From Candidatus Micrarchaeota archaeon (lineage in GTDB: Archaea > Micrarchaeota > Micrarchaeia > CAILAH01): a DNA stretch of 44,712 nucleotides. Positions 405-40,214 of the stretch are shown here, piece after piece (within the stretch, counting starts at the first letter, position 1; every line of letters begins with the position of its first letter). The position numbers and the translations under genes are program-made. The notes beneath the pieces were generated by a model. It ran no database searches. It was not told the DNA's origin and saw only the letters and a list, made by a program, of their open reading frames with translations. The stretch is taken from positions 1-44,712 of the forward strand of contig CAYOAB010000001.1 in the NCBI GenBank assembly GCA_964401875.1, in the 5' to 3' direction.

Positions 405-556
405 GCGGATATAGTATAGCCTGGTAGTACATGGCCTTGCCAACACTGCGGAAGGGGGAGTACCCCCTTCCCCGAGTGATCTGCCCCAACCCCCCATGCG
501 GTGGCTTGAGGTATTGTGAAAAGGCTAAAGCTCGGGTTCAAATCCCGATATCCGCA
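405..556 (+). tRNA. tRNA-Gly(GCC) with ~79-nt intron at canonical 37/38 position
   Basis: Cloverleaf folded by hand. Acceptor is GCGGATA/TATCCGC and the D-arm is GTAT-AGCCTGGTA-GTAC. The anticodon stem is TGGCC (432-436)/GGCTA (523-527) and the loop is TTGCCAA, giving anticodon GCC. The variable loop is AAGC, the T-arm is TCGGG-TTCAAAT-CCCGA and the discriminator is A556. No CCA is encoded. Mature length is 73 nt after removing 443-521. Confidence 0.8.
443..521 (+). other. tRNA-Gly intron (GC-rich, hairpin-containing)
   Basis: This segment separates anticodon-loop A37 from A38/GGCTA; the boundary is ambiguous by 1 nt. It contains the hairpin GGAAGGGGG-AGTA-CCCCCTTCC (450-471). It is homologous to the start of the T-loop insertions at 1120 and 1455 (ACTGCGG...CCGAGT). 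Confidence 0.7.
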
Positions 557-559
557 TAT

Positions 560-618
560 AAGGGGCGCATCCGCCCCCTTTAAGACCCCCGGTATTTTCG
601 CCTCCGTGAGGCGAAAAT
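560..618 (+). other. two strong GC-rich stem-loops 3' of tRNA-Gly, followed by a T-run
   Basis: The first is GGGGCG-CATC-CGCCCC (562-577). The second is ATTTTCGCCTC-CGT-GAGGCGAAAAT (594-618). TATTTATTTT follows. Function is unknown; it may be a processing or termination signal, or another member of the hairpin-module family. Confidence 0.45.
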
Positions 619-710
619 GTGAAATATTTATTTTGAGAGAACACGGAAAAGAAACTAATTATTTTTGAAAATAAATATAGACTAATTATAAGTTCAAAGA
701 ATTAGAAATA

Positions 711-775
711 ACTTCGACCTCTGGTCTAATTTTGGGATTGAACCCTTTTACGCCAAGACCTATGCAGTTGTAATT
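711..775 (+). repeat. 65-nt leader repeat, copy A (upstream of 3'-half unit 2)
   Basis: ACTTCGACCTCTGGTCTAATTTTGGGATTGAACCCTTTTACGCCAAGACCTATGCAGTTGTAATT is near-identical to 1294-1358, with one T/G difference. An AT-rich TATA-like sequence (AAATAAATATAG / TAATTATAAG, 671-692) lies upstream. Confidence 0.8.
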
Positions 776-799
776 TGGACTTGTCGGAAAAGGGTCAAA

Positions 800-984
800 G
801 GCTAAAGCTCGGGTTCAAATATTGATTTTCGAAGAAAAGCAATATGTCTGTTTTCCAAAGGAAAACGAACATGCCATTCGCTTATAGCGAATAAGCATGC
901 CATTTGAAAATCAAATGAACATCCCGATATCCGCATTTGCGAAGCAAATGAGGAGGCCGTAAACAAAGTTTACGAGCATCCGCA
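800..984 (+). ncRNA. tRNA-Gly 3'-half unit 2, with a T-loop insertion and a candidate acceptor-strand insertion; no 5' half in cis
   Basis: Exon-like pieces are GGCTAAAGCTCGGGTTCAAAT (800-820) and TCCCGATA(TCCGCA) (922-935), with a second TCCGCA at 979-984 followed by CTT plus a T-run. The ~100-nt insertion (821-921) has ends that can pair: TGATTTTC 823-830 with GAAAATCA 906-913, and exon TTCA 814-817 with TGAA 916-919. Confidence 0.5.
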
Positions 985-1098
985 CTTACTAATTTTATTT
1001 TGTAAAAATATTATTAATTATAAAAATGGTCAGAGGGTCATTAGGGGGTTAAGGGGGAGCATCCCCCTTCCCGTCCTGCAGGGGCGGAACCCTGCAAA

Positions 1099-1271
1099 GG
1101 CTAAAGCTCGGGTTCAAATATACTGCGGGAGGGGGAAACCCCCTCCCCCGAGTATCTGTCTATTCGGCAAATCCGAATGACATGCTACAAACGTTCGCGT
1201 TTGTGAGCATCTGCCCCTACCCCCTTTGGAGGTATGCAGTTGTGCTTATATTGAAATTCCCGATATCCGCA
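1099..1271 (+). ncRNA. tRNA-Gly 3'-half unit 3, with a ~138-nt T-loop insertion; no 5' half in cis
   Basis: GGCTAAAGCTCGGGTTCAAAT (1099-1119) and TCCCGATATCCGCA (1258-1271) match the tRNA-Gly exon 2 sequence exactly. TTCAAATAT (1113-1121) can pair with ATATTGAA (1248-1255). A TATA-like TTATAAAAA (1019-1027) lies upstream, and CTTGTTTTT follows the unit. Confidence 0.5.
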
Positions 1272-1293
1272 CTTGTTTTTCGTTTTATAATAT

Positions 1294-1358
1294 ACTTCGA
1301 CCTCTGGTCGAATTTTGGGATTGAACCCTTTTACGCCAAGACCTATGCAGTTGTAATT
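1294..1358 (+). repeat. 65-nt leader repeat, copy B (upstream of 3'-half unit 4)
   Basis: Near-identical to 711-775. Here it is separated from the shared GGACTTGTCGGAAAAGGGTCAAAGGCTA segment by an extra 52-nt insertion (1359-1410) that is absent from unit 2. Confidence 0.8.
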
Positions 1359-1433
1359 CCACTTTTTGCAAGGCAATAAGGGGTGCCATTTGGCGAAGCC
1401 GAATAAGCATGGACTTGTCGGAAAAGGGTCAAA

Positions 1434-1710
1434 GGCTAAAGCTCGGGTTCAAATATACTGCGGGAGGGGGAAACCCCCTCCCCCGAGTATCTGTCTATTC
1501 GGCAAATCCGAATGACATGCCACAAACGTTCGCGTTTGTGAGCATCTGCCCCTACCCCCTTTGGAGGTAGGCAGTTGTGCTTATATTGAAATTCCCGATA
1601 TGTTTTATGCGAAGCATAAAATATGTCTATTTTCCTTTGGAAAATGATCATGCCATTCGGCTTCGCCGAATTAACATGCCGTAAATACAAAGTATTTACG
1701 AGCATCCGCA
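1434..1710 (+). ncRNA. tRNA-Gly 3'-half unit 4, with a T-loop insertion and an acceptor-3'-strand insertion; no 5' half in cis
   Basis: Exon pieces are GGCTAAAGCTCGGGTTCAAAT (1434-1454), TCCCGATA (1593-1600) and TCCGCA (1705-1710). Joined, they reproduce the tRNA-Gly 3' half exactly. The acceptor strand is unambiguously interrupted after CCCGATA by 104 nt (1601-1704). Confidence 0.55.
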
Positions 1711-1743
1711 CTTATTTTTATATTTTACGAATGAAATAAACAT

Positions 1744-2166
1744 ATGAAAAACTTGGCCTTTTTTGGATTATATGAAAATCTCTTCATAGTATTAAAAGAA
1801 GAACAAGGGGAAGAAATGGCCCTTAACATCTTTAGAAAAGTTATGGAGAAAGGATTGAAAACAACATATGATAAAATGGGATTTGAAAAAGGTAATGTTA
1901 ATGATTTTGTTAGGGTTTTAACAGAAAGAGATAATAGTGTTGGGCTAAGAGTAGAATTTCCGGAAATTACAGAAAATAAAATAGTGTACCAATTTTATGA
2001 TGATCCATTTCCAGGGTTAAAAGGGAGAGTTGAACATGAGAAATTGGATGATACTTTTATCTCGTTTAAAATTAAACATATTTTGGGAAATGAATGGAAA
2101 TATAAAACAACTAAACATGCCTGGGATGGAAATGAATACACAGAATATGTAATCACACGCATTTAG
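1744..2166 (+). CDS. hypothetical protein (140 aa)
   Basis: Clean ORF with ordinary composition and an ATG start after an AT-rich promoter-like region. No family recognised. Its 3' end overlaps the convergent topA by 14 nt. Confidence 0.6.
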   Translation: MKNLAFFGLYENLFIVLKEEQGEEMALNIFRKVMEKGLKTTYDKMGFEKGNVNDFVRVLTERDNSVGLRVEFPEITENKIVYQFYDDPFPGLKGRVEHEKLDDTFISFKIKHILGNEWKYKTTKHAWDGNEYTEYVITRI

Positions 2167-4156
2167 GATTGGCACATTTGACAACTTTTCTTTTGCTTAA
2201 AATGTAAGTCATTATGGGCCCGCCGCACTTTGGACATTTCTCAACAAACGTGGCCTTCTTGATTGTGGAAGGAAGAGGGTATGCGTTTTTACAATTAGGG
2301 TAATTGGAACAACCTATGAATATTCTTTTATCCCTTGTTGGCCTTACAATTAAGTTACCAGTTTTACATAAATTACAAGGCATAACATAATTTTCCATTC
2401 TTTCACTTTGGTAATATGCAGTTCTTAACTCTTTACCAATGTTATCACTATTCTTTTTGAAATCGTCAATTATTTTCAATATTATTTTCTTGGCATCGTT
2501 AACTACATTTTCCTCTTTCTCTTTATTTTCTTGTATCTTCTCAACTTTCTCTTCAAATTCACGTGTTAAGTTTTCATCTAAAATATCTTTACAATACTTT
2601 GAAAGAGTTTCATGAACGGCCATACCTAATAAACTAACTTCAATACTTTTAGATTTAACATATTCACGTTGGAATAAAATATCAATAATTGTTGCACGTG
2701 TTGCCTTAGTACCTAAGTTATACTTTTCAAGTTCCTTAATTAGGGAAGTTGCAGTGTAACGTTTAGGTGGTTGAGTTTTCTTTTCCTCTTTACTTAACTT
2801 GTCAACAGTTATTTCTTCTTTTTCTTTTAACTTTGGAAGTGTTTGTTCATCAGCTGAATAATATTTACCATAAAGTTCAATCCATCCTGGAGTTAAAACA
2901 ACAATACCTTTTCCAATGTACTTTTCATTACCCAATTTCAAAACAGCTTTAGTAGATTGTTTAACTGCTGGGTCACCGAAACAAGCAAGGAACCTGCGCA
3001 CGATTAAATCATATAACTTCTTTTCTCTTTCACCTACATTTACTTGTATACCTGTTGGGTGAATTGCTGGGTGTGCCGGGTCTGATTTCTTACCATTGTT
3101 AGGTTTATACTTATTATTTTGAATTAAGAAATTGGCTTCCTTTGAGTATAAATGATTGTTTGATAACTTTTGAATTATAGATTTCAAATCAATTGAGGGG
3201 GGATACTGTTGTGAACTTGTACGCGGGTAACTTATCATTGAACTTTCATAAAGAGTTTGCGTTAATGCTAAAACATCTTTAGGTGCAAACCTGTGCACCC
3301 TGTACGCTTCAATCTGTAATGATGTTAAATCAAATGGAACTGGTGGTGCCACTTTAAATTCATTAACTTGTAATGATTCAACTTTACCTTTCTTATCAGA
3401 ATTTTTTAATGCAGTTTCTGCTTCTTTTTCATCCCAAAACTTTTCCTTCTCATGTACAAATTGTACTTTTTTATATTCTGCAAAAAGTTGCCAATAAGGT
3501 TTTGAAACGAACTTTTGAATTTCCTTTTCCCTTTTAACTAAAATGTCAAGAGAAGGTCCTTGCACACGTCCAATACTTAAATTTTTTCTTAAACCTGCAT
3601 TACGTGCACATTGACTTAACGCTCTGCTTATGTTTATACCCCAAAACCAATCTAACATGTGCCTCGTTTCACCTGCTATGGCATTACTATAATCAAGTTC
3701 AGTCATGTTTTCATATGCTGAAACAATATCTGATTTAGTTAATGCAGAGAATTTCATTCTCATACCCGTATCAGAACCTGCGGCAAAACGTATAGCATTG
3801 TAACCTATAAGAGAACCTTCAACATCATAATCGCACGCTGAAACGAACATGTCACAATCATCTGAAAGTTTAGAAATTAAATCAATGTAATCTTTAGTGT
3901 ACGCTGCTTGTTTGTTTGATTGGTATGCGGGAACCCATTCAATGTCAAAAACAGGAATTGCATAACCTTTACTTTTTTGTTCAAGTGAATATATGTGCCC
4001 TACTGCACTTACCACAATTAATTTATCATTTCCGTAAGTTGTTTCATAATAAGAAATTCCTTTTATATTTTTTCTTTTAACGTTATCCCCTAAAAAAGTT
4101 GCTATTTTTTCAGCCACTTTTGGTTTCTCTGCAATAATCATTATGGATTTGTTCAC
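2153..4156 (-). CDS. topA: type IA DNA topoisomerase (Topo I/III-like) with C-terminal zinc ribbons
   Basis: N-terminal Toprim domain (MIIAEKPKVA..., acidic cluster ACDYDVEGSLIG). Active-site Tyr motif ISYPRTSSQ. C-terminal Cys4 ribbons: CNLCKTG...CSNYPNC and CPKCGG...CANPKC. Confidence 0.9.
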   Translation of the reverse strand: MNKSIMIIAEKPKVAEKIATFLGDNVKRKNIKGISYYETTYGNDKLIVVSAVGHIYSLEQKSKGYAIPVFDIEWVPAYQSNKQAAYTKDYIDLISKLSDDCDMFVSACDYDVEGSLIGYNAIRFAAGSDTGMRMKFSALTKSDIVSAYENMTELDYSNAIAGETRHMLDWFWGINISRALSQCARNAGLRKNLSIGRVQGPSLDILVKREKEIQKFVSKPYWQLFAEYKKVQFVHEKEKFWDEKEAETALKNSDKKGKVESLQVNEFKVAPPVPFDLTSLQIEAYRVHRFAPKDVLALTQTLYESSMISYPRTSSQQYPPSIDLKSIIQKLSNNHLYSKEANFLIQNNKYKPNNGKKSDPAHPAIHPTGIQVNVGEREKKLYDLIVRRFLACFGDPAVKQSTKAVLKLGNEKYIGKGIVVLTPGWIELYGKYYSADEQTLPKLKEKEEITVDKLSKEEKKTQPPKRYTATSLIKELEKYNLGTKATRATIIDILFQREYVKSKSIEVSLLGMAVHETLSKYCKDILDENLTREFEEKVEKIQENKEKEENVVNDAKKIILKIIDDFKKNSDNIGKELRTAYYQSERMENYVMPCNLCKTGNLIVRPTRDKRIFIGCSNYPNCKNAYPLPSTIKKATFVEKCPKCGGPIMTYILSKRKVVKCANPKCV

Positions 4157-17177: not shown

Positions 17178-17264
17178 TTTTAGGATATGCGAAGCAACCG
17201 AAAAAGGCCAATGTGTCTTTTTCCCTGGGATTTTTAGGATATGCGAAGCAACCGAAAAAGGCCA
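17178..17264 (+). repeat. 33-bp direct repeat x2 (TTTTAGGATATGCGAAGCAACCGAAAAAGGCCA) abutting tRNA-Thr
   Basis: Identical copies at 17178-17210 and 17232-17264, separated by the 21-nt ATGTGTCTTTTTCCCTGGGAT. The second copy ends exactly at tRNA-Thr position +1. Confidence 0.85.
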
Positions 17265-17338
17265 GCCTCAGTAACTCAGCACGGTAGAGTGCGTCCTTGG
17301 TAAGGACGAAGCCGTGGGTTCAAATCCCATCTGAGGCT
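17265..17338 (+). tRNA. tRNA-Thr(GGU), no intron
   Basis: Acceptor GCCTCAG/CTGAGGC. D-arm ACTC-AGCACGGTA-GAGT. Anticodon arm CGTCC-TTGGTAA-GGACG. Variable loop AAGCC. T-arm GTGGG-TTCAAAT-CCCAT. Discriminator T. 74 nt. Confidence 0.9.
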
Positions 17339-17355
17339 CTTTTTCTACATATATT

Positions 17356-18824: not shown

Positions 18825-19203
18825 TTTCAATAATTTCCTCTTTTGTTAATTCCTCACGTTCGGGAACCTTATCAGTTAAGGAAATATAACTTCTAGTATT
18901 AATTTTTGTTGGAACTAAATGAATGTGTAGATGAGGAAGAGAACGACCATTGATTGGGTTTATTGTGATTATGGGGTAATCTCCATATGTTTTCTTTATT
19001 ATTTCAGAAAAAATTTCAACTAAATCAAACATGTCTTTTGCTTCTTCTTGTGTTAAATCATTATATTTTTCAACATGTCTAAGAGGCATTACCATCAAGT
19101 GGCCTTTCTTTAGGGAATGTAAATTAATTGCAACCTGTGAATATTTAGTTTTATGAACTAATGTTTCTTGTTTTTCTAAATCATCGCAAAATGGACAATT
19201 CAC
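18796..19203 (-). CDS. HIT-family (histidine triad) nucleotide hydrolase/transferase
   Basis: Histidine triad HLHIHLVP and N-terminal CPFC. It overlaps the upstream HAD gene by 4 nt, suggesting an operon. Confidence 0.8.
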   Translation of the reverse strand: MNCPFCDDLEKQETLVHKTKYSQVAINLHSLKKGHLMVMPLRHVEKYNDLTQEEAKDMFDLVEIFSEIIKKTYGDYPIITINPINGRSLPHLHIHLVPTKINTRSYISLTDKVPEREELTKEEIIEIKNKINKFL

Positions 19204-20294
19204 ATAATAACCTCCTGTACCTTATAATAATCAATTAAATTATTATTTCTAATTGAAGCTACAATTAAATCCTTTCTAACTTTACGAGAATATTCTTTTA
19301 TTTTTTCTAAGTATTCCCAATTTAAATTTTCTGAAATAATCACAACATATTCACTTTGAGAATTTTTTGGCATCATGCCTTTTTCATGAACAAGAAATAA
19401 ATCTTCAGAAGGAACATAGTTTGAAACATGTATTTTATCTCTTAAATCCTTGAAAACCAAATATCTTTCTTTAAGAAATTTATCTTTGTTTACCTTTTTT
19501 AGTGCATCGGATTTGATTTTTTTAAGTTCAGTTAAATAAGCTGCTTGTAAAATGTCAACATAATATGAATTGTTTTTTGGATAACCTATACCTCTTCCCT
19601 TTAATTCATCAACTAAAGAACCTTCAATTTTATGTTCATATTTTCCTGAAATCCAATTAACAGTGTTAAGTATAAATAAAGGGTTTAAACAAACATAATC
19701 GGCATTAACCTCCCTTAACAAATCAGCACTAAAAGTGTTAACCACACCTATAGTAATCATGCCTGCTCTTTTACCTGAAATTACACCATTAGGAGAATCT
19801 TCAACCACTATACATTCTTCTTTAGGGACATTTAATTTTTTTCTTGCAGTTTCATAAGGAATAGGTGAAGGTTTACCTTCATTCACATCATTACTTGTTA
19901 TAACAAAATCAAAATAATTCTTAATATTACATCTTTCTAAAGTTAAATTAACAAGTGAGGAATGTCCTGAAGTTACAATAACTAAAGTATGTTCTTTTTT
20001 TAACTCTTTTAGTACTTTTTTGATGTTATCTAAAAGTTTAATTTTAGATTTTTTAAAATAATTAATTTTTTCTTGTAAAAAATCTTGAGAAGTAATATTC
20101 AAATTAAAAATCTTGATATATAAATCAAAAACATCCATTTGTCTTAAACCCGTTGTTTCAGTTAACTTGAAAGATCCTTTTTTTAATTCTTCTTTAAAGT
20201 CAATATTATATTTTTTAAGTATGAATTCATCTGCCTTATTATGTAAAAGTTCAGTGTCTGTCAAAGTTCCATCTAAATCAAATAAAATATACAT
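19200..20294 (-). CDS. HAD-superfamily hydrolase (subfamily IA, beta-PGM-like) fused to an uncharacterised ~160-aa C-terminal domain
   Basis: HAD motifs are FDLDGTLTDT (I), IVTSG (II), EGKPSP (III) and VVEDSPNGVISGKRAGM (IV). The C-terminal half was not recognised. Confidence 0.7.
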   Translation of the reverse strand: MYILFDLDGTLTDTELLHNKADEFILKKYNIDFKEELKKGSFKLTETTGLRQMDVFDLYIKIFNLNITSQDFLQEKINYFKKSKIKLLDNIKKVLKELKKEHTLVIVTSGHSSLVNLTLERCNIKNYFDFVITSNDVNEGKPSPIPYETARKKLNVPKEECIVVEDSPNGVISGKRAGMITIGVVNTFSADLLREVNADYVCLNPLFILNTVNWISGKYEHKIEGSLVDELKGRGIGYPKNNSYYVDILQAAYLTELKKIKSDALKKVNKDKFLKERYLVFKDLRDKIHVSNYVPSEDLFLVHEKGMMPKNSQSEYVVIISENLNWEYLEKIKEYSRKVRKDLIVASIRNNNLIDYYKVQEVIM

Positions 20295-21152: not shown

Positions 21153-24100
21153 ATGAGTGGAGATGGAGTTAATAGAACTAATGAAATACTTAATAAAAAG
21201 TTAGAATACTGGAAAGGAAAATTACTTGATATATCTCTAAAAAATAAACTTATAAATTTCAAAGAAAAATCTTCAGTCATACCTTTAATTATAAAAGAAG
21301 AAAATGAATTCCATAATATTTATGATTTGATTGTCAATAAAAATAAAAAATTATCATTAGCAATTAACTCTGAAAAAACTAATGTTTATAATGTAAACTT
21401 GTCGGAAAAGGAAGCTAAAAATAGGTTATATAACGTATATTTGAGTAGTAAAGAAAGTTTATCGGAACAAACAATCAACACTTTGTATATGACATTTGGT
21501 TTTTTAGAATATGAAGATTCTGAAACAAATACAAAAATTAAAGCTCCTTTAATTCTGGTGCCTATTAAAATTGAAAAAAGAAAGGAAATTGAAAAAGAAA
21601 AATTACCTTATGTAATATATTTCTTAGAAGATGATATACAAATTAACCCTGCTTTGAGACAAAAATTAATATACCAAAACAATTTAGACATAGGAGAAGA
21701 TTTTGAAACACTTGATTTATTTTTTGAAAAAATTCAAAAGGAAGTTGAAAAATATAATTGGAAAGTTACAAAAAATGAAATTTATTTTGGTATATTTTCA
21801 TTTCAAAAATTATCAATGTATCAAGATTTGAGTAGGAATAAAGAACTTATAATTAATCATCCAATCATTAAAGCAATAGCAGGAGAAAAATATGAATATG
21901 ATTATACTAAAATAATTCACGGTAAAGAAATTGATAAAATTAATATGAAAGAGAATCTGTATGTTTTAGATGCAGATTCAAGCCAAAAGGAAGCAATAAT
22001 TGCCGCTAAGAATGGTTTAAGTTTTGTTTTACAAGGTCCACCAGGAACTGGAAAAAGTCAAACTATAGCCAACATCATAGCTCAACAATTAGCAGAAGGT
22101 AAAAAGGTTTTGTTCGTTAGTGAAAAATCTGCTGCACTTGAGGTAGTTAAAAAAAGATTAAATGAAACGGGGATAGGTCATTATTTACTTGAATTACATA
22201 ACGCAAATATTAAAGGTAAAAAATGGGTTCTCGAACAATTTGATAGAGCATTAAGTGATAATAAAATATATGAAATTGAAAAGAATATTATAGAAACACT
22301 TGAAGAAAATAGAAAAATACTTAGAGAATATGGAGAAGAATTAATTGAAAGTAAAATTGAGTTAAATGCTTATGAAGTCTTAGGAATACTTTCAAAACAT
22401 AGTAATATTAAATTTGCAGATATGGAAATTAACTTGAAAACTGATTATGAATATTATAGAAAAAATATTGTGGTTTTTGAAGAACTTGATTTTTATGAAA
22501 AACAAATAGAACAGTATAATACTAATTTGTTAAGGTATATTAATAACAAATTGTACAATGAATTTACAGATATTAAAAGAGAAAGATTAAAGGAAAATTG
22601 TGAATCTGCTCTCGAAAATATTGAATATATGAAAATAGACCTCGATAATATTGAAAAGAATTTGGGACTATATTTTACATGTGTTGAAGATTTTAGAACT
22701 TTAAACAAAAAAAGAGATTTATTATTGGCTAAACCTTCTAATAACTTAACACGTGAATTTTTTACATATGAGGGAGGAACAGAAATATTTGATAACTTTG
22801 ATAAAAAAACTGAGGAAATAAAAGCCTTGAAAATATATTTTGAAAAAAAATATAATATAGAATTATTTAAAAGTGAAATGTTTAAAGAAATATATTCAAA
22901 CATTTCTAATGCAAGTTCATTTTTCCTTTTTAGAATAGTGGATAGTAATTATATAAGATCTGAAAAAATAATTAAAAAGAATTACAAGGGAGATAAAAAA
23001 CATTTCAATTATGAGAACATTTTACAAGATTTAAAACAATATAAAACTTGTGAAAAATTAGAGGTAGAAATTAAAGAAGAAGAAAAGAGAATTAAAGAAA
23101 TGTTAAATATTAAGGAAGTTAATGTAAAGGAAATAAAAGAAATAATAAGTTGGATAAAAGAACTTAAAAAAGAAAATATAATTAATTCAAGATTGATTGA
23201 AACACTTGTAAAAAATACTGATGATTATAAAAAAGAATTTGATAAAACAGTAAAAAGTGTGGACAACTTCATGAATTATTATCTTAAAATAACAGATTTC
23301 CTTGAAGTTCAAGCTGTTGAAAAATATTTCTTGAGAGCATCATGGAATAAATTAGATGAACGTTTTAAAAACATAGAAGAAAATTCAAATGAAATATCAA
23401 AATGGGTTGAATTTAAGAACACTTTAGATAAGTTAGATAGTGATTTAAAATTAATTTTTGAAAAGGCAACGAAAGATGAAAAGAGAAATTATAAAGTAAG
23501 TGAATTGTTTGAAAAATTGTTTATGCAAGAATATTTGTTCAGAATGAGATTAGATTTAGTTAAAAAGAGTAGAGAATATTTAGATATGGTTCATAAAAAA
23601 TTCGTGAACGCGGATAAAGAACATATGTATTATTCAAGAAATTCTATAATCAAACAAATTGAAACTAAAAAACCTAAAATAAGTTTAAGCTCTGGAAGTT
23701 CTGAAATTGGAATTTTAAAAAGAGAAATTGCTAAAAATAGAAGTCATATGCCAATGAGAAAATTATTTAATGAAATTAAAAATTTGGCTTTCTTAATTAA
23801 ACCTTGTTTTATGATGAGTCCATTATCAGTAGCTAAATATGTAGATCCAGAGGTTATGGATTTTGATACTGTGATATTTGATGAAGCATCACAAATTATG
23901 GTGGAAGATTCTATTAGTTCAATATATAGAGGAAAACAAGTTATTGTAGTGGGAGACTCAAAACAATTACCGCCAACAATGTTCTTTAAAGTAAATGAAG
24001 ACCTTGATTTAGAAGAAGATTTAGAACAAGCAACAAGTATATTAGATGAAATTGGACCTTACTTACCTAATCACTTATTAAAGTGGCATTATAGAAGTAA

Positions 24101-25661
24101 AAATGAATCTTTAATCAACTTTTCAAATTATAATTTTTATAATAACTCACTTGTAACTTTCCCAAATAATAAAGTTAATGATTTCGCAATTGATTATGAA
24201 TATGTGGATAATGGTGTTTATGATAGAGGAAAAAGTAGGTATAATAAAAATGAAGCAAGAAGAGTAATTGAATTAATTAAAAAACATTATGACACTAATC
24301 CAAAAAAGAGTTTAGGAATTATTGCATTTAGTATGGCACAACAAAAATGTATACATGAAGAATTAGAAATGTTTTTATTTGAAAATCCAATTTATTTAAG
24401 ATACATTAATTTAGATGATACCATTGATGGTTTCTTCGTTAAAAATCTTGAAACAGTACAAGGAGATGAAAGAGATTCAATTATAATTAGTGTTGGTTAT
24501 GGCAGGGATATGGAAGGAAACTTTTCACTTAATTTTGGTCCCTTAAATAAAGAAGGGGGAGAAAAAAGATTAAATGTTGCAATTACAAGGGCAAAAGAAA
24601 AAGTTACTATTGTTTCTTCAATTAATCCAAGTGAAATTAATGAGGGTAGAACTAAATCAGAAGGATTAATTTTACTTAGAAAATATATGGAATATGCAAA
24701 TAAAAAAGAATCTGAAATAATTAAAAGACATAATTTTGAATCTGAATTACAAAAAATAATGTATGAAAAATTAACTTCTTATGGTTTTAAGATTGATAAA
24801 AATGTAGGTAATTCTGATTATAATATAGATATTGCAATTAAAGATTTTGTAAATCCAAACGTTTACAAATTGGCATTACAACTTGATGGTAAAATGTATA
24901 TTAATTCAAAGGTCACTAGAGACAGGGATAGAATTCATTCAGAAATATTAGAAAATATGGGATGGAAAGTTCATAGAATTTGGTCATATGATTGGATGTT
25001 AAACCCTGAAAAGGAAATTGAAAAAATACTTGAACTTATGGATAATAAAATTAAACTTGAAGATATGAAAAAGGAAAATAAAAAACAATCCATTGAAATT
25101 AAAGATGAGGATTTATCAATTGCAATAAAAGAATATCCTAATATAGATTACAAAAAGTTAGATAAAGAAACATATTATGAATTTGATTTCTTTTCAAAAA
25201 TAAAAGAAGTTATCAAGAATGAATCTCCTATAACTAAAACACTTTTAATGAAAAGAATATTTGATATATATGGAGTTAAAGAAGGAGTAAAAAGTAAAAA
25301 AAGATTTGATGAAATAATTACAACTCATGTACCCTCAACAGAAATATTTATGGAAAAAGAAACATTATGGTTTGAAAAGCCTAAATTCTTTTATAATTTA
25401 AGAAAAAATGTTAAAGGTGAAAGAGACATAAATGAAATGACAGAACCTGAAATTAGAATTGGTATTTTATTAATAGTAGATACTGCAATAAGTATATCAA
25501 AAGAAGACATTCCAAAAGATGTCGCTAATTTATTTAATGTACCTAAAATGTCCGCTAAATTTAAAGCTAAATGTAAAATATTAATAGATGAATTAATAGA
25601 GAAAAAATATTTAATAAATGGAGAAAAAATTACTCTTAATAAAGAAAAAGAAATAGCATAA
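21153..25661 (+). CDS. large SF1 (Upf1/Dna2-like) helicase: DUF4011-type N-terminus, AAA_11/AAA_12 core, Vsr/DUF559-like nuclease-fold module, DUF3320-like C-terminus
   Basis: N-terminal LLDISLKNKLINFK (DUF4011-like). Walker A is GPPGTGKSQ, motif II is VIFDEASQI and motif III is VVGDSKQLPPT. Further motifs are YRSKNESLINFSN, TVQGDERDSIIIS and RLNVAITRAKEKV. These are followed by a PD-(D/E)xK-like IDIAIKD...LALQLDGKMY...HRIWSYDW segment. Confidence 0.8.
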   Translation: MSGDGVNRTNEILNKKLEYWKGKLLDISLKNKLINFKEKSSVIPLIIKEENEFHNIYDLIVNKNKKLSLAINSEKTNVYNVNLSEKEAKNRLYNVYLSSKESLSEQTINTLYMTFGFLEYEDSETNTKIKAPLILVPIKIEKRKEIEKEKLPYVIYFLEDDIQINPALRQKLIYQNNLDIGEDFETLDLFFEKIQKEVEKYNWKVTKNEIYFGIFSFQKLSMYQDLSRNKELIINHPIIKAIAGEKYEYDYTKIIHGKEIDKINMKENLYVLDADSSQKEAIIAAKNGLSFVLQGPPGTGKSQTIANIIAQQLAEGKKVLFVSEKSAALEVVKKRLNETGIGHYLLELHNANIKGKKWVLEQFDRALSDNKIYEIEKNIIETLEENRKILREYGEELIESKIELNAYEVLGILSKHSNIKFADMEINLKTDYEYYRKNIVVFEELDFYEKQIEQYNTNLLRYINNKLYNEFTDIKRERLKENCESALENIEYMKIDLDNIEKNLGLYFTCVEDFRTLNKKRDLLLAKPSNNLTREFFTYEGGTEIFDNFDKKTEEIKALKIYFEKKYNIELFKSEMFKEIYSNISNASSFFLFRIVDSNYIRSEKIIKKNYKGDKKHFNYENILQDLKQYKTCEKLEVEIKEEEKRIKEMLNIKEVNVKEIKEIISWIKELKKENIINSRLIETLVKNTDDYKKEFDKTVKSVDNFMNYYLKITDFLEVQAVEKYFLRASWNKLDERFKNIEENSNEISKWVEFKNTLDKLDSDLKLIFEKATKDEKRNYKVSELFEKLFMQEYLFRMRLDLVKKSREYLDMVHKKFVNADKEHMYYSRNSIIKQIETKKPKISLSSGSSEIGILKREIAKNRSHMPMRKLFNEIKNLAFLIKPCFMMSPLSVAKYVDPEVMDFDTVIFDEASQIMVEDSISSIYRGKQVIVVGDSKQLPPTMFFKVNEDLDLEEDLEQATSILDEIGPYLPNHLLKWHYRSKNESLINFSNYNFYNNSLVTFPNNKVNDFAIDYEYVDNGVYDRGKSRYNKNEARRVIELIKKHYDTNPKKSLGIIAFSMAQQKCIHEELEMFLFENPIYLRYINLDDTIDGFFVKNLETVQGDERDSIIISVGYGRDMEGNFSLNFGPLNKEGGEKRLNVAITRAKEKVTIVSSINPSEINEGRTKSEGLILLRKYMEYANKKESEIIKRHNFESELQKIMYEKLTSYGFKIDKNVGNSDYNIDIAIKDFVNPNVYKLALQLDGKMYINSKVTRDRDRIHSEILENMGWKVHRIWSYDWMLNPEKEIEKILELMDNKIKLEDMKKENKKQSIEIKDEDLSIAIKEYPNIDYKKLDKETYYEFDFFSKIKEVIKNESPITKTLLMKRIFDIYGVKEGVKSKKRFDEIITTHVPSTEIFMEKETLWFEKPKFFYNLRKNVKGERDINEMTEPEIRIGILLIVDTAISISKEDIPKDVANLFNVPKMSAKFKAKCKILIDELIEKKYLINGEKITLNKEKEIA

Positions 25662-36936: not shown

Positions 36937-38826
36937 TTATTTAAACAGAGGACAATCAATCACGAAAGATTCAAACTCACCACCTTCGCCGGCCACATTT
37001 ACTCCATACTTTTTGTTTAATTTTATTAGTTCTTCAATGTCTTTTTCTGTTATTTCCCTATTGAGCCATGAGTTGTCAAGACCTTCCGCGGCAACTTTAG
37101 TGAATATGAATTTGAATTTGTCTTTTAACAATCTTCTCATGTGTAGTTCTTGATCAACGTGCCATAAAGGGAAAAATACGCGGAGGCCGATTTTATCAGA
37201 AATTGTTTCAATACGTTGTCTTTGATATTCTGAAAATAAAGCTCCGGTGATTACACCTTCTATTTTATATTTCTCTTTGGCCTTTTCAAGCGCTTCTTTT
37301 AATTGTTTTAATTCTTCTTCTTTTTCACCACTTGTTTCAATTAGAATTAAGGGAATATTCATTTTATGAGCGTGTTCTTTTACCCTATCAATTTCTGGTG
37401 TGTGATACATGTATGAATCTTGGTTTTTACTTTTAATAGAAATAAGACAGGAAATTTCGTAATTTCTTTGTTTCATTAAATAGAGAGCGTAAGCACTATC
37501 TTTACCTCCTGTGTATAATGCTCCTAACTTTATGTTTTTCTTTCTGTGCAAATTAAAAAGATGTGAAGTAATGTTTTTAGTTGAAAGGGAACGTAACAAG
37601 TTCATTGATTTTGTTCCATACTGTGCTGCCTTCTTTGGGCGCATGTAATATTTATCATTTATTTTGAATTCATTTTTCAAAATGTCGCGTAATATTTTTT
37701 TTTCATATAGTTCTTTTCTATCTAATGATAGAGAAGAAAGAACAAGTGATTTGTCTAAATAGGGAACACGCATTTCTTTACTGAAAGTCATTGCTAATGA
37801 ATTGTTTCTGTACAAATCTCTTTCATAAATGTCTCTAAGTGAAGAAATTAATTCATTTTTAATTTCATTTTCAGCTTTAAACCTGTGGTACCCGCCAAAT
37901 ATTTCATCGGCACCGGAACCACTAAATATAACTTTACTTTTGAATTTTTGTGATAGGGAACAAGCGTAATATATTGGAATAGCAATACCCACTTTAACAG
38001 AATCGCAGGAACTTATTCTTTCCATTATTTTCTTAATATCTTTTTCTATATTTTCCTTTTTAAATTCAATTTCATTTAACTTGAATGAATATTCATTACT
38101 GAAATCACGTGCGTATTTAATGTCTTCACTATCCTTTGAATATGAAGTTATTAAAGTAGGTTCGTAACCTAATTCACGAGATTTTAATGCTAAATATTGT
38201 GAATCAATTCCACCTGAAAAGAGAATTATGGGATTGTCAACTATTCTTTTTTCTACACTTTTAGAAAGTAAATTGTTAATTTCTTTGTAAGAGGAAGAAG
38301 AAGGAATTAAAGAAAAAAAATCATTATATTTTATTTTAGTTTTTTTTGTTTTTACATTGTGAATTAAAATTGTGCGCGGGTGAAGTTCAATCAATTCCTC
38401 TATTCTTTCTGAACTGAATATAAGTGGATTAAGTGAATAGAAAAGGGGAAACACACCTAAGGGATCACGGAATGCATAAATTGTGTTATCTCTGTAATAA
38501 ATACATGCATAGTCACCATCTAATTCATTCATTAATTTTGTAATTTCAATTTTATCTTGTGATTCTAAATATTTAAAAATAAATTCTGCATCGTTTCTTG
38601 CTTTTATATCATATTTAATACATAATTCTTTCCAGTTGTATATTTCACAGTTGGCCAAAAAAACTCCTTGGTCTTCAAATGGTTGTTTAACGTTTTCTCC
38701 TACTATTGAGAGGAGGTTGTGTGTGAATTGTAAATTATCTTTGATTAGGGAGGACTCTGAATCTGGGCCTCGGTGAGAAAGGGAGGGTAAATTGTATCCA
38801 TAGATACATAAGCTGATTCCACACAT
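36937..38826 (-). CDS. fusion protein: glutamine-dependent asparagine-synthetase-like (Ntn GATase + PP-loop) fused to a Dph6/MJ0570-like ATP-binding (diphthine-ammonia ligase family) domain
   Basis: The start is set at MCGI (38826), because Ntn amidotransferases need Cys right after the initiator Met. AsnB blocks are HRGPD, NCEIYN, RDPLGVFPLFY and the PP-loop FSGGIDSQ. The C-terminal ~195 aa (LGALYTGGKDS...EGGEFESFV) match the DUF71/ATP_bind_4 pattern. Confidence 0.7.
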   Translation of the reverse strand: MCGISLCIYGYNLPSLSHRGPDSESSLIKDNLQFTHNLLSIVGENVKQPFEDQGVFLANCEIYNWKELCIKYDIKARNDAEFIFKYLESQDKIEITKLMNELDGDYACIYYRDNTIYAFRDPLGVFPLFYSLNPLIFSSERIEELIELHPRTILIHNVKTKKTKIKYNDFFSLIPSSSSYKEINNLLSKSVEKRIVDNPIILFSGGIDSQYLALKSRELGYEPTLITSYSKDSEDIKYARDFSNEYSFKLNEIEFKKENIEKDIKKIMERISSCDSVKVGIAIPIYYACSLSQKFKSKVIFSGSGADEIFGGYHRFKAENEIKNELISSLRDIYERDLYRNNSLAMTFSKEMRVPYLDKSLVLSSLSLDRKELYEKKILRDILKNEFKINDKYYMRPKKAAQYGTKSMNLLRSLSTKNITSHLFNLHRKKNIKLGALYTGGKDSAYALYLMKQRNYEISCLISIKSKNQDSYMYHTPEIDRVKEHAHKMNIPLILIETSGEKEEELKQLKEALEKAKEKYKIEGVITGALFSEYQRQRIETISDKIGLRVFFPLWHVDQELHMRRLLKDKFKFIFTKVAAEGLDNSWLNREITEKDIEELIKLNKKYGVNVAGEGGEFESFVIDCPLFK

Positions 38827-38879
38827 ACTTCTATAATAAATTATGAATAATTTAAATTGTTTCTCATTTTTATTCATAT

Positions 38880-40214
38880 ATGTATAAAGTTGCAATTTCA
38901 CTTGGTGAAATGACATTGAAAGGTTTTCAAACTAGAAGTAAATTTGAAAAGATATTGAAAGATAATTTAAAGAAATCATTAAACATTACAAAAATAAGAA
39001 AAGATGGTGGTAAATTTTTACTTCAAATTGATGAAGAAGATAAAGAAAAAATTAAATATAAATTAAAAAGAACTTTTGGGATTGCAACGTTTGCTTTTGT
39101 TGATGAATTTAATTTTACTACATTAGATGAACTTAAGGAAAAAATTAAAGAAAAATATAATGATATTAAAGGTAAAAAATTTAGAATTACAGGTAAAGTA
39201 TTGAATCATAAAGGAATGAATTCCATTCAATTACAAAAAATATTAGGTGAAGTTTTATTCAATGAAGGTGGAATAGTTAAACTAAAAGAATATGATTTGG
39301 AAATTTTTGTTTATTTAAGGGAAAATAAAGTTCAAATATATGAAGATATTCATAAAGGTCCTTACGGATTACCTTTGGGAAGTGAAGGTAAAGTTTTAGT
39401 TTTATTTTCAGGAGGATTAGATTCACCTGTTGCAAGTTATGAAATTATGAAAAGAGGTTGTAAACCTATTTTCTTGTTTATTAATTTGGGTGGAAAAGAC
39501 CATTTAAACCAAGTTTATGAAATATATAGAAAATTGTGTGACGAATGGGCGAATGGAATAGAAATTGAGTTTTATGTAATTGACGGTAAAAAAATAGTAA
39601 ATATAATTAAAGAAAAAATAACTCCTTCTTATAGACAAGTTGTTTTGAAAAAATGTTTTTACACTACTGCAGAAAAAACATGTATAAAAAATAAATGTGA
39701 TGCTATAATTACAGGTGAAAATTTAGGACAGGTTTCAACTCAAACATTAAAGAATTTGAATGCGATTCAATCTGGAATTAATAAATTAATTGTAAGACCT
39801 CTCATAACTTATGAAAAAGATGATATAATTAAATTGGCGAAAAACATTGGTACATATGAATTATCTTCAGGAATTGGGGAATTATGTAATATATCTGATA
39901 AAGGTGGTGTTAAGACTGCTGCGAGTGTTGGGGGGGTTGAGTTTGAGTATTCTAAAATAAGAGAAGAAATTGAAGAATATTTGGAAAATGTATCTATAGA
40001 TACATCAACATTTCAAACTCCAACACAAATAGATTGGAATAATTCAATAATAATAGACTTATCTAAAGAAAAAATAAACATAAACAAATTAAAAAAAGAC
40101 TTTTTTTATATTATATGTTGTAAAGATGGTATTCAAGCATCTATTGAATGTGATATACTCAAAAATTTAGGTTTTAATTGTACTTCCATGAAAAAATCTC
40201 AAATTAAAAAATGA
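38880..40214 (+). CDS. thiI: tRNA 4-thiouridine synthase ThiI (THUMP + PP-loop) with a possible C-terminal rhodanese-like module
   Basis: GEMTLKG...R N-terminus and PP-loop LFSGGLDSPVA. The C-terminal ~60 aa contain IICCKDGIQAS, which resembles a rhodanese active-site loop (tentative). Confidence 0.8.
   Translation: MYKVAISLGEMTLKGFQTRSKFEKILKDNLKKSLNITKIRKDGGKFLLQIDEEDKEKIKYKLKRTFGIATFAFVDEFNFTTLDELKEKIKEKYNDIKGKKFRITGKVLNHKGMNSIQLQKILGEVLFNEGGIVKLKEYDLEIFVYLRENKVQIYEDIHKGPYGLPLGSEGKVLVLFSGGLDSPVASYEIMKRGCKPIFLFINLGGKDHLNQVYEIYRKLCDEWANGIEIEFYVIDGKKIVNIIKEKITPSYRQVVLKKCFYTTAEKTCIKNKCDAIITGENLGQVSTQTLKNLNAIQSGINKLIVRPLITYEKDDIIKLAKNIGTYELSSGIGELCNISDKGGVKTAASVGGVEFEYSKIREEIEEYLENVSIDTSTFQTPTQIDWNNSIIIDLSKEKININKLKKDFFYIICCKDGIQASIECDILKNLGFNCTSMKKSQIKK

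Follow-up and report, generated by a model that had tools for sequence, protein, structure and literature searches.

Analysis of a 44,712-nt stretch of DNA from Candidatus Micrarchaeota archaeon (contig CAYOAB010000001.1; the whole stretch is hereafter the window) revealed, between positions 405 and 1710, one intact tRNA-Gly(GCC) gene, unit 1, and three further units, units 2–4, that repeat its 3′ part and contain hairpin-rich insertions. We favour, with a probability of about 0.5, the explanation that this is a recombining, hypervariable, intron-rich tRNA-Gly(GCC) locus of a Micrarchaeota-like DPANN archaeon, in which one working gene is accompanied by a variable array of headless copies with nested hairpin cassettes. 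The analysis followed up an original prediction, made from the sequence of the window, that small structured RNA elements move between, and nest within, tRNA introns at this place. Its observation was confirmed, the density of hairpins being far beyond chance, and its interpretation was partly supported. In the region 405–1710, 17 perfect hairpins (stem ≥ 7, loop 3–5) were counted, compared with 0.37 ± 0.60 in dinucleotide shuffles; the density of perfect hairpins was 13 per kb in this region versus 0.7 per kb across the remaining 43 kb of sequence, and the folding z-scores of the four units ranged from −3.9 to −8.8 relative to shuffles.

Unit 1 (405–556, + strand) is read as the working gene of the locus. 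It consists of exon 1 (405–442), a 79-nt intron at position 37/38 (443–521) and exon 2 (522–556), and once the insert was skipped it matched the full Rfam tRNA model (1–71) with 49.9 bits and an E value of 7.5e-8. Among the four units, it was the sole one accepted as a tRNA by Rfam or ARAGORN-type models, with the anticodon GCC; units 2–4 gave no tRNA match in Rfam at gathering or permissive thresholds, at which the rest of the region returned sub-threshold noise for all Rfam families. Read by eye, the intron junctions of unit 1 comprise the 5-bp anticodon stem, a helix UUGC(437–440):GUGA(516–519) with two G-U pairs, and two 3-nt bulges, that is, an hBH(B) form of the bulge-helix-bulge (BHB) motif, with an inner helix h′ that is weak on inspection. 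An alternative inner strict BHB would cut out 445–507, although chance alone would give about 1.35 motifs of this kind in the region. In intact genes, the 4-nt segment just 5′ of exon 2 complements the anticodon-loop UUGC, being GUGA in unit 1, GUAA in L026 and GCAA in L029. Here and below, L-numbers denote other assembly, metagenome or genome loci compared with the window; variants were gathered by scanning metagenomes with the 3′ half of the tRNA and by looking up variants of the neighbouring gene. Downstream of unit 1 lies a trailer (557–710, +) with hairpins at 562–577 and 594–618 and an AT-rich, TATA-like segment before unit 2 that was read by eye as a promoter. The trailer is also present in L025, from an 85%-identical species, where the hairpin corresponding to 594–618 carries three compensatory pair changes.

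Units 2–4 had been taken by the original prediction for tRNA genes with extra introns, a view that was not upheld, since they are 5′-truncated and have no 5′ half. Judged by their sequences, they are most probably paralogous copies of the tRNA-Gly 3′ half that would be unable to give a tRNA. Their exon segments reproduce the 3′ half of unit 1 exactly (AAAGGCTAAAGCTCGGGTTCAAAT ... CCCGATATCCGCA), and a search across the 44.7-kb window for a second tRNA-Gly 5′ half found none, the single one being that of unit 1. Unit 2 (711–984, +) comprises a leader hairpin (~711–796), an exon segment (799–819), a T-loop BHB intron (820–921), a second exon segment (922–935), a two-hairpin insertion and a second ATCCGCA (978–984), and takes part in repeat families D2, D3 and D8. 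Unit 3 (1028–1271, +) has leader hairpins at 1051–1069 and ~1078–1094, exon segments at 1098–1118 and 1258–1271, and a T-loop BHB intron at 1119–1257. Unit 4 (1294–1710, +) is a mosaic, in which a unit 2-type leader with an insertion, E6, is combined with a unit 3-type T-loop intron (1454–1592), an acceptor insertion (1600–1703) and ATCCGCA (1704–1710). Repeat D1 relates 1095–1266 to 1430–1601 (172 nt, 99%), and D3 relates 702–775 to 1285–1358 (93%). The spacers between the tRNA repeats measure 16–200 nt and contain no open reading frame (ORF). The leader hairpin of unit 3 covaries when compared with L025 and L030 (GCAGGG/CCCTGC versus GCAACG/CGTTGC). Signs of decay were seen among the copies: L031 reads ATCCACA in place of ATCCGCA, and a unit of L043 has lost its anticodon-stem segment. 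In the latter (L043 400–445), the unit 3 leader is joined straight to CGGGTTCAAAT, so that the second leader hairpin and the anticodon-stem/variable segment (~29 nt) are deleted, while the T-arm BHB and the 102-nt intron are intact.

Stand-alone 3′ halves with promoter-like and terminator-like flanks, in an arrangement that is kept in L030, recall the split (trans-spliced) tRNAs of Nanoarchaeum or Caldivirga. We regard a split tRNA-Gly as highly improbable and rejected it, because an intact gene adjoins the units, the 44.7 kb hold a single 5′ half, and the leaders fold on themselves and carry no complement of the anticodon loop. On inspection of units 2–4, L025 and L030, the truncated units read GGUC, CUGC or UUGC before the AA|A bulge, and these 4 nt are unable to pair with the anticodon-loop UUGC or with any other U33-bearing loop; units 2 and 4 additionally contain an unspliceable insertion in the acceptor strand. 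Having neither a 5′ half nor a complement of the anticodon loop, units 2–4 are therefore not split-tRNA halves and cannot mature into tRNA-Gly.

The T-loop insertions of units 2–4 are predicted to be BHB introns at position 59/60, a kind already known for Micrarchaeota. BHB motifs were sought in the window by a script for the 3-4-3 bulge-helix-bulge geometry, and variant loci were judged by inspection only. Strict motifs were found at 1113/1252 in unit 3 and at 1448/1587 in unit 4, where the T stem (5 bp) serves as helix h, UUCA:UGAA (4 bp, Watson-Crick) as helix H, the bulges are 3 nt each and h′ has 3 bp. In unit 2, inspection by eye gave the T stem, UUCA(814–817):UGAA(916–919) and 3-nt bulges, with an inner helix h′ in which a single A/A mismatch precedes 9 bp. 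Archaeal BHB motifs are cleaved after the second bulge nucleotide. Cutting units 2–4 in this way restores the T loop GGGTTCAAATCCCGA exactly, and the rule agrees with the 59/60 assignment in PMC3239211. Archaeal BHB introns are expected to leave a cloverleaf when the exons are joined; a full one results in unit 1, and the T arm only in units 2–4. From these placements we infer that the BHB introns of the locus are probably spliced. No C/D-box or H/ACA-box features were seen in the introns on inspection.

The tRNA-Gly(GCC) of a Micrarchaeia relative (L006 8641–8796) has introns at both 37/38 and 59/60 and the same UUCA:UGAA helix. In ARMAN-2, also of the Micrarchaeota, multi-intron tRNA genes with BHB motifs at non-canonical positions, 59/60 included, were reported together with an epsilon2 splicing endonuclease of broad specificity that cuts the 59/60 introns (Fujishima et al., 2011; PMC3239211). 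Given L006 and ARMAN-2, the 59/60 part of the present finding is a known kind of feature. The two systems agree in their phylum-level group, in the positions 37/38 and 59/60, and in the hBHBh′ geometry with the T stem as outer helix. They differ in that the ARMAN-2 introns measure 13–25 nt, whereas those described here measure 79–139 nt and are built of hairpin modules; here, moreover, most intron-bearing units are truncated copies, and the intron content varies between strains.

Units 3 and 4 carry at 59/60 the intron family that unit 1 has at 37/38. This resemblance, noticed already in the original prediction, amounts to 82% identity over 77 aligned nt, with an alignment score of 68 versus 7.2 ± 3.8 for shuffled sequences. 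Transposition of tRNA introns has been inferred in Thermoproteales (Fujishima, 2010, as cited in PMC4033280). As far as that citing account goes, the likeness lies in similar introns at different tRNA positions, here 37/38 of unit 1 and 59/60 of units 3 and 4 at 82%, and the difference lies in scale, the spread there being among tRNA species, genome-wide and at the species level, and here among the copies of one tRNA, at one locus and at the strain level.

Within these insertions, three inner cassettes, E2, E4 and E5, each exactly 53 nt long, were found to follow one plan: GTCT, hairpin, GAnCATGCY, hairpin, nRnCAT. Cassette E2 (846–898, +) lies inside the unit 2 T-loop intron and consists of GTCT, hairpin 850–866, GAACATGCC, hairpin 876–892 and AAGCAT. 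Cassette E4 (1625–1677, +), inside the unit 4 acceptor insertion, consists of GTCT, hairpin 1629–1645, GATCATGCC, hairpin 1655–1671 and TAACAT. Cassette E5 (1158–1210, +), inside the unit 3 T-loop intron, consists of GTCT, hairpin 1162–1178, GACATGCT, hairpin 1187–1204 and GAGCAT; a second copy of it (1493–1545, +) lies in the unit 4 T-loop intron as part of the 99% repeat D1, where one substitution makes an 8-bp stem (1521–1540). The related two-hairpin block E6 (1359–1408, +) interrupts the loop of the leader hairpin of unit 4 and is without counterpart in the otherwise 93%-identical unit 2 leader; it is 50 nt long, not 52 nt as first proposed. The second hairpin of E6, ATTTGGC-GAA-GCCGAAT, belongs to the ATTCGG family, and its loop is complementary to that of hairpin 1655–1671. 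All the hairpins that had been listed from the sequence proved to be perfectly Watson-Crick paired and to lie at most 2 nt from their proposed places (850–866, GTTTTCC/GGAAAAC; 1629–1645, ATTTTCC/GGAAAAT; 876–892, 1655–1671, 934–950, 1603–1621, 958–974, 1680–1700, 450–471, 1127–1147 and 1462–1482). A tandem-repeat origin was rejected, as Tandem Repeats Finder detected nothing.

The module of ~60 nt that was said to be common to units 2 and 4 is real (841–901 versus 1620–1680, 61 nt, 77%, ungapped; family D5), and the homology is longer than that: the T-loop insertion of unit 2 (820–921) and the acceptor insertion of unit 4 (1600–1703) can be aligned from end to end, with four hairpins in each and a score of 73 versus 14.4 ± 5.0. 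E2 and E4 are 82% identical, and their stem differences are compensated. The unit 2-type T-loop intron (820–921, +; 102 nt) has four hairpins, a-b-c-d, as an outer two-hairpin element, hairpin a/hairpin d, with E2 in its linker. Likewise, the unit 4 acceptor-stem insertion (1600–1703, +) is made of hp1 (1603–1621), E4 (1625–1677), hp2 (1680–1700) and AGC, so that E4 occupies the linker of hp1/hp2. The cassettes are thus nested within larger insertions of like architecture, and the sites that they occupy include a T-loop intron, an acceptor insertion, the unit 3-type intron and a leader.

A BHB motif is not the rule for every module, and that notion was rejected: the scan gave the T-loop introns and one CAUG/CAUG arrangement, which surrounds E2 around hairpin 876–892 and is a mere resemblance to a BHB. 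Scanning of the window and inspection, including the 5′ acceptor strand, found no BHB for the acceptor insertions (929–977 in unit 2 and 1600–1703 in unit 4), the cassettes E4 and E5 or the block E6. None of these insertions, cassettes and leader blocks is therefore an intron in its own right. In all variants examined, acceptor insertions are confined to 5′-truncated units or mini-units, and the intact genes (unit 1, L026, probably L029, and L006) carry inserts at 37/38 and 59/60 only. The hp1+hp2 form of the acceptor insertion without E4 was found in L025, L027, L029, L030, L031 and L043.

The stem differences are compensatory, as the original prediction had claimed. Seven homologous acceptor insertions, drawn from two or three species, were compared: 9 pairs had changed on both sides versus 2.4 ± 1.2 in shuffled controls (0/500), 91.9% of the cells could pair versus 82.2 ± 1.5% (0/500), and the covariation score was 0.278 versus 0.121 (0/500); in a control with slid partners, the signal collapsed. 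A hand-aligned tally of nine hairpin families, which takes in leader and trailer hairpins compared with the 85%-identical species L025, gave 22 double-compensatory changes, 2 one-sided wobble changes and 4 broken pairs, mostly terminal. Several loops are swapped for their complements over unchanged stems, such as AAA/TTT in GGGAGGGGG...CCCCCTCCC (window 1136–1138 versus L027 422–424) and GAA/TTC in the ATT(C/T)GGC hairpin (window 1395–1397 versus 1662–1664), which looks like inversion of the palindromes as DNA. In addition, a two-hairpin+AGCAT element is inverted in the spacer of L027 and L043. The inverted copy and the loop flips point to DNA-level events, and, G-U intermediates being scarce, a constraint on DNA palindromes fits at least as well as one on RNA. 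Most hairpin loops are GAA or AAA and closed by C-G; such loops form very stable DNA mini-hairpins, for example GCGAAGC. Of the proposal that structured RNA elements move between and nest within tRNA introns, then, the two-hairpin family, its nesting, its different kinds of sites and its covarying stems stand, and movement as RNA was not supported, the cassettes having no BHB motif of their own.

The arrangement of the locus is not an assembly artefact, as independent assemblies agree on it: it was recovered at 99.9–100% identity in five contigs of independent JGI, ENA and Logan assemblies, among which L001 (JGI) and L002 (ENA) match window 482–2200 at 99.9–100%. Against this common background, intron content, 59/60 occupancy and cassette presence are polymorphic among strains and lineages. 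L026 has flanks that are 99.8% identical to the window and an entirely different 37/38 intron, within which lies a pseudo exon start, CTAAAAAAGGCTCAACCC; L001 and L002 have a third sequence 5′ of window position 482. L029 combines an L026-type 37/38 intron with a unit 3-type 59/60 intron without E5. The arrays of L027 and L043 are arranged otherwise and contain mini-units that start at TCAAATCCCGATA, and L025 has one unit only, without units 2–4. The presence/absence polymorphism that had been suggested as a check was indeed found for E5, which is absent from L027, L029 and L043. The empty site reads GAGTATCT|CTGCCCC in L027 and L029, and L043 has the same empty junction with substitutions, which makes E5 a clean 53-nt indel. 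The two-hairpin block noticed earlier is thus present, and its proposed 55 nt become the 53 nt of 1158–1210, bracketed by an imperfect 8-nt direct repeat, GAGTATCT/GAGCATCT.

The 102-nt intron of unit 2 provides a further comparison. The neighbouring gene of L030 is 83% identical at the nucleotide level, with third codon positions 29% divergent, and yet the intron shows 0 differences in L030; it is also 100% identical in L043. In both, exactly invariant exon segments flank the intron, with different leaders on the 5′ side and different acceptor insertions on the 3′ side. The chance that 102 positions remain unchanged at 17% divergence is ~6e-9, and the intron must therefore have been transferred recently or be very strongly constrained. 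A chimeric assembly as the source of this identity in L030 was judged unlikely, as the shared flanks are just 24 and 7 nt; the typical assembler k is 31, longer than either.

A purely local history would consist of segmental duplication and unequal crossing-over, with the palindromes kept perfect by intrastrand templated (quasi-palindrome) correction and nothing moving to new sites. Every copy found is confined to one locus, D1 and D3 look like recent duplications, the stems are nearly pure Watson-Crick (22 double versus 2 wobble changes), and loops flip between copies, all of which suits such a history. We nevertheless consider it rather improbable as the whole explanation, because related cassettes occur in at least four sequence contexts and in both orientations, E5 is a clean 53-nt indel, an identical intron is shared by diverged lineages, and the covariation persists across species. 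The original prediction had itself named two signs of a mere local segmental duplication, namely modules that occur nowhere else and covariation that is not significant. The first half agrees with the finding that no cassette copies were detected outside the tRNA-Gly locus when the remaining 43 kb of the window and ~300 kb from other archaeal loci were searched; the second clearly disagrees with the results above. A descriptor of two perfect hairpins at most 12 nt apart, followed by CAT, matched only this locus and its variants when run over 389 kb.

Under the favoured explanation of a recombining locus with one working gene, the BHB introns would occupy two structurally equivalent loops, 37/38 and 59/60. 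The palindromic cassettes, three of 53 nt and related two-hairpin units of ~50 nt, would be inserted, duplicated or lost as DNA, and would be tolerated where they do no harm, that is, inside BHB introns that are spliced out or in dead parts of copies (acceptor strand, leader, spacer). The invariant exon segments AAAGGCTAAAGCTCGGGTTCAAAT and CCCGATA(TCCGCA) may serve as portable homology arms, through which exon-intron-exon blocks would be swapped between units, strains and lineages, giving rise to mosaic arrays; we infer exchange through these exon arms from the variants described above.

By analogy of form, the cassettes may be inserted as DNA by a hypothetical enzyme, much as IS200/IS605-derived or REP-like elements are, with hairpins at the ends but neither inverted terminal repeats nor a duplicated target. 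Hairpin-ended non-autonomous DNA elements are known as REP/BIME, which are associated with RAYT transposases (PMC2817692), and as palindrome-associated elements derived from IS200/IS605 (PMC7290912, PMC3597680). The likeness comprises subterminal perfect hairpins, the lack of terminal inverted repeats and of target duplication, clustering and nesting, either orientation, and compensatory stem changes. E2, E4 and E5 have in common the subterminal-hairpin layout of GTCT, hairpin, linker, hairpin and RCAT, and the insertion of E5 is clean, though imperfect 8-nt repeats flank it. The cassettes differ in being much smaller (50–53 nt, with both hairpins 4–6 nt from the ends), in having been seen at a single locus, and in that no Y1/HUH transposase (TnpA/RAYT) was found among the 27 ORFs of the window and one ORF of L026. 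The likeness is one of form.

Several points weigh against the favoured explanation. Each of units 2–4 has, by eye, a TATA-like sequence on its 5′ side and a T-run on its 3′ side, their exon segments are perfectly conserved, and the hp1+hp2 structure of the acceptor insertion is kept across species, so units 2–4 could be expressed and functional and not dead. Both one-sided stem changes are G-U wobbles on the tRNA (+) strand, a hint of pairing at the RNA level. The count of strict BHB motifs is not significant (4 seen versus 1.35 ± 1.4 in shuffles), and, as it is near chance, the BHB argument depends on the exact placement of the motifs. A Pfam search of the same 27 window ORFs and the L026 ORF found no transposase, integrase or other mobility gene. 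Finally, with no cassette beyond the locus, a genome-wide mobile family is unproven, and local duplication with divergence could explain most copies.

The flanking signals and the wobbles also speak for a reading in which the introns themselves are the product. In that case, each of units 2–4 would be no more than a T-arm scaffold, equipped with a promoter and a terminator, whose only role would be to offer a BHB for the excision of a hairpin-rich intron, probably as a stable circular RNA that would be functional or selfish and would spread horizontally. The BHB is retained even in the L043 unit that has lost its anticodon-stem segment; the 102-nt intron is unchanged beside a gene that differs by 17%; and a promoter-like TTAATTATAGCCAGCGAG with the leader is kept in L027, L030 and L043, the same sequence standing before a protein gene in L025. 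We hold this reading to be unlikely, as no Rfam family and no C/D-box or H/ACA-box features were recognized, loops flip freely, an inverted copy exists, and the acceptor insertions, which lie outside any BHB, are equally structured. A wider version is similarly doubtful: intron-only genes, as truncated T-arm scaffolds with their own promoters, would express and spread hairpin-built intron RNAs, and mobile BHB introns would hop between 37/38 and 59/60, between copies and between lineages, growing by nested 53-nt cassettes. If the introns are mobile in this way, the locus would offer a natural system in which to watch, at the population level, how archaeal tRNA introns arise and spread.

How archaeal tRNA introns are acquired, and why they abound in some lineages, is a long-standing question for which the evidence so far is mostly between species. 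Here, near-identical strains differ at one locus in the identity of the 37/38 intron, the presence of the 59/60 intron, a nested 53-nt cassette and the number of headless copies; in addition, lineages 17% diverged have an identical intron. The gain, transfer and growth of introns can thus be tested directly on digester metagenomes and metatranscriptomes that already exist. The locus also carries a practical warning, since standard tRNA finders detect only unit 1 of the four and the array is a place where assemblies break.

Direct repeats of the tRNA-Gly 3′ part, all in one orientation and with the intact gene at one end, are formed by units 2–4 and by the mini-units starting at TCAAATCCCGATA in L027, L029, L031 and L043. 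Such a series, in which the intact gene comes first and each fragment starts either from the anticodon loop or within the T loop, would be expected if mobile elements carrying a tRNA-Gly 3′ part with introns had integrated site-specifically again and again, and the partial copies were the duplicated attachment sites; every integration would bring in a new intron and 3′ half and push the old one downstream (model of Sugahara et al., 2012). The complete replacement of the unit 1 37/38 intron between near-identical strains and the pseudo exon start in the L026 intron accord with this model, and Caldiarchaeum supplies a precedent, for which population heterogeneity and a mobile-element model for introns at a tRNA locus were described (PMC3293823). 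There, as here, the introns of a single tRNA locus vary in number and identity among near-identical genomes, the intact gene has a partial tRNA copy beside it, and the intron is proposed to come with a donated part of the gene. In Caldiarchaeum, however, a 1.8-kb insert with a recombinase gene parts the fragment from the gene, whereas nothing of the kind occurs here and the fragments are 16–200 nt apart; the fragment there is a 5′ one and those here are 3′ parts, and no hairpin cassettes are described there. For the locus studied here, we judge repeated integration to be quite improbable, because the spacers contain no integrase or element body, the neighbours are housekeeping genes, and nothing similar turned up in IMG/VR or in phage and plasmid collections: the tRNA 3′ half and the unit 2 leader had no match in IMG/VR, nor did blastn searches of the phage and plasmid collections give any, and the viral matches that were seen are unrelated phage tRNA-Leu genes only. 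A virus or plasmid origin was likewise rejected; the 19-nt tRNA 3′ end matched four IMG/VR phage contigs, in ordinary tRNA-Leu(GAG) genes whose T-arm and acceptor sequence agrees by coincidence. The phage contigs concerned (L047–L050) have 11–25 tRNA genes in the fetched stretches, and the last 19 nt of their tRNA-Leu(GAG) equal the 3′ end of the window tRNA-Gly.

As for the setting of the locus, the G+C content of the whole window is ~28% and that of the region 1–2000 is 37–41%. A Pfam-type domain scan identified GatD, a diphthamide-synthase domain, AlaRS, anaerobic ribonucleotide reductase and topoisomerase I in the window; GatD and the diphthamide-synthase domain mark the DNA as archaeal, and the genes around the locus are housekeeping ones. 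Among 185,579 species genomes, the closest topoisomerase I match came from a Candidatus Micrarchaeia metagenome-assembled genome (60% identical), followed by other DPANN, and that collection held no relative closer than this. A 140-aa protein neighbouring the tRNA-Gly locus has homologues labelled Micrarchaeota; none of its homologues at 66–69% identity, from more distant relatives, lies beside a tRNA-Gly.

Three other proteins of the window deserve a short description. At 19200–20294 (−), a 364-aa protein has an N-terminal HAD-type hydrolase domain (E value 6e-36), and over its C-terminal 166 aa it aligns with nearly the full profile of the tRNA-intron endonuclease catalytic domain (25.6 bits, just below the Pfam cut-off of 27; E value 1.3e-5), this weak EndA-like domain lying at 19200–19700; a PDB sequence search with this protein matched the HAD part alone. 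It could be a candidate HAD-EndA fusion, and its gene shares the window with the intron-rich tRNA locus. At 21153–25661 (+), a 1502-aa protein combines DUF4011, superfamily-1 helicase domains (AAA_11/AAA_12) and a C-terminal MTES_1575/DUF559 restriction-endonuclease-like domain, an architecture that looks like that of a defence or repair protein. At 36937–38916 (−), a 659-aa fusion contains glutamine amidotransferase, asparagine-synthase and C-terminal diphthamide-synthase (PF01902) domains.

A second small repeat tied to tRNA gene ends was also recognized. Two direct copies of a 32-nt element, TTTTAGGATATGCGAAGCAACCGAAAAAGGCC, at 17179–17211 and 17233–17264, abut the 5′ side of tRNA-Thr(GGU) (17265–17339). 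The element occurs in the tRNA-Gly arrays of L027 (~505–540) and L043 (~72–105) as well, in the opposite orientation and at the acceptor end of a unit, and a diverged form of it lies within the 37/38 intron of L026 and L029. In a distant archaeon, whose topoisomerase is 49% identical, a tRNA-Gly(UCC) gene (L007 5571–5743, −) has a ~100-nt intron with a perfect 11-bp hairpin inside. This intron contains the 12-mer CCCGATATCCGC, which equals the 3′ end of the window tRNA-Gly(GCC) and not that of its own tRNA, and which may be a tRNA fragment captured by the intron or a coincidence.

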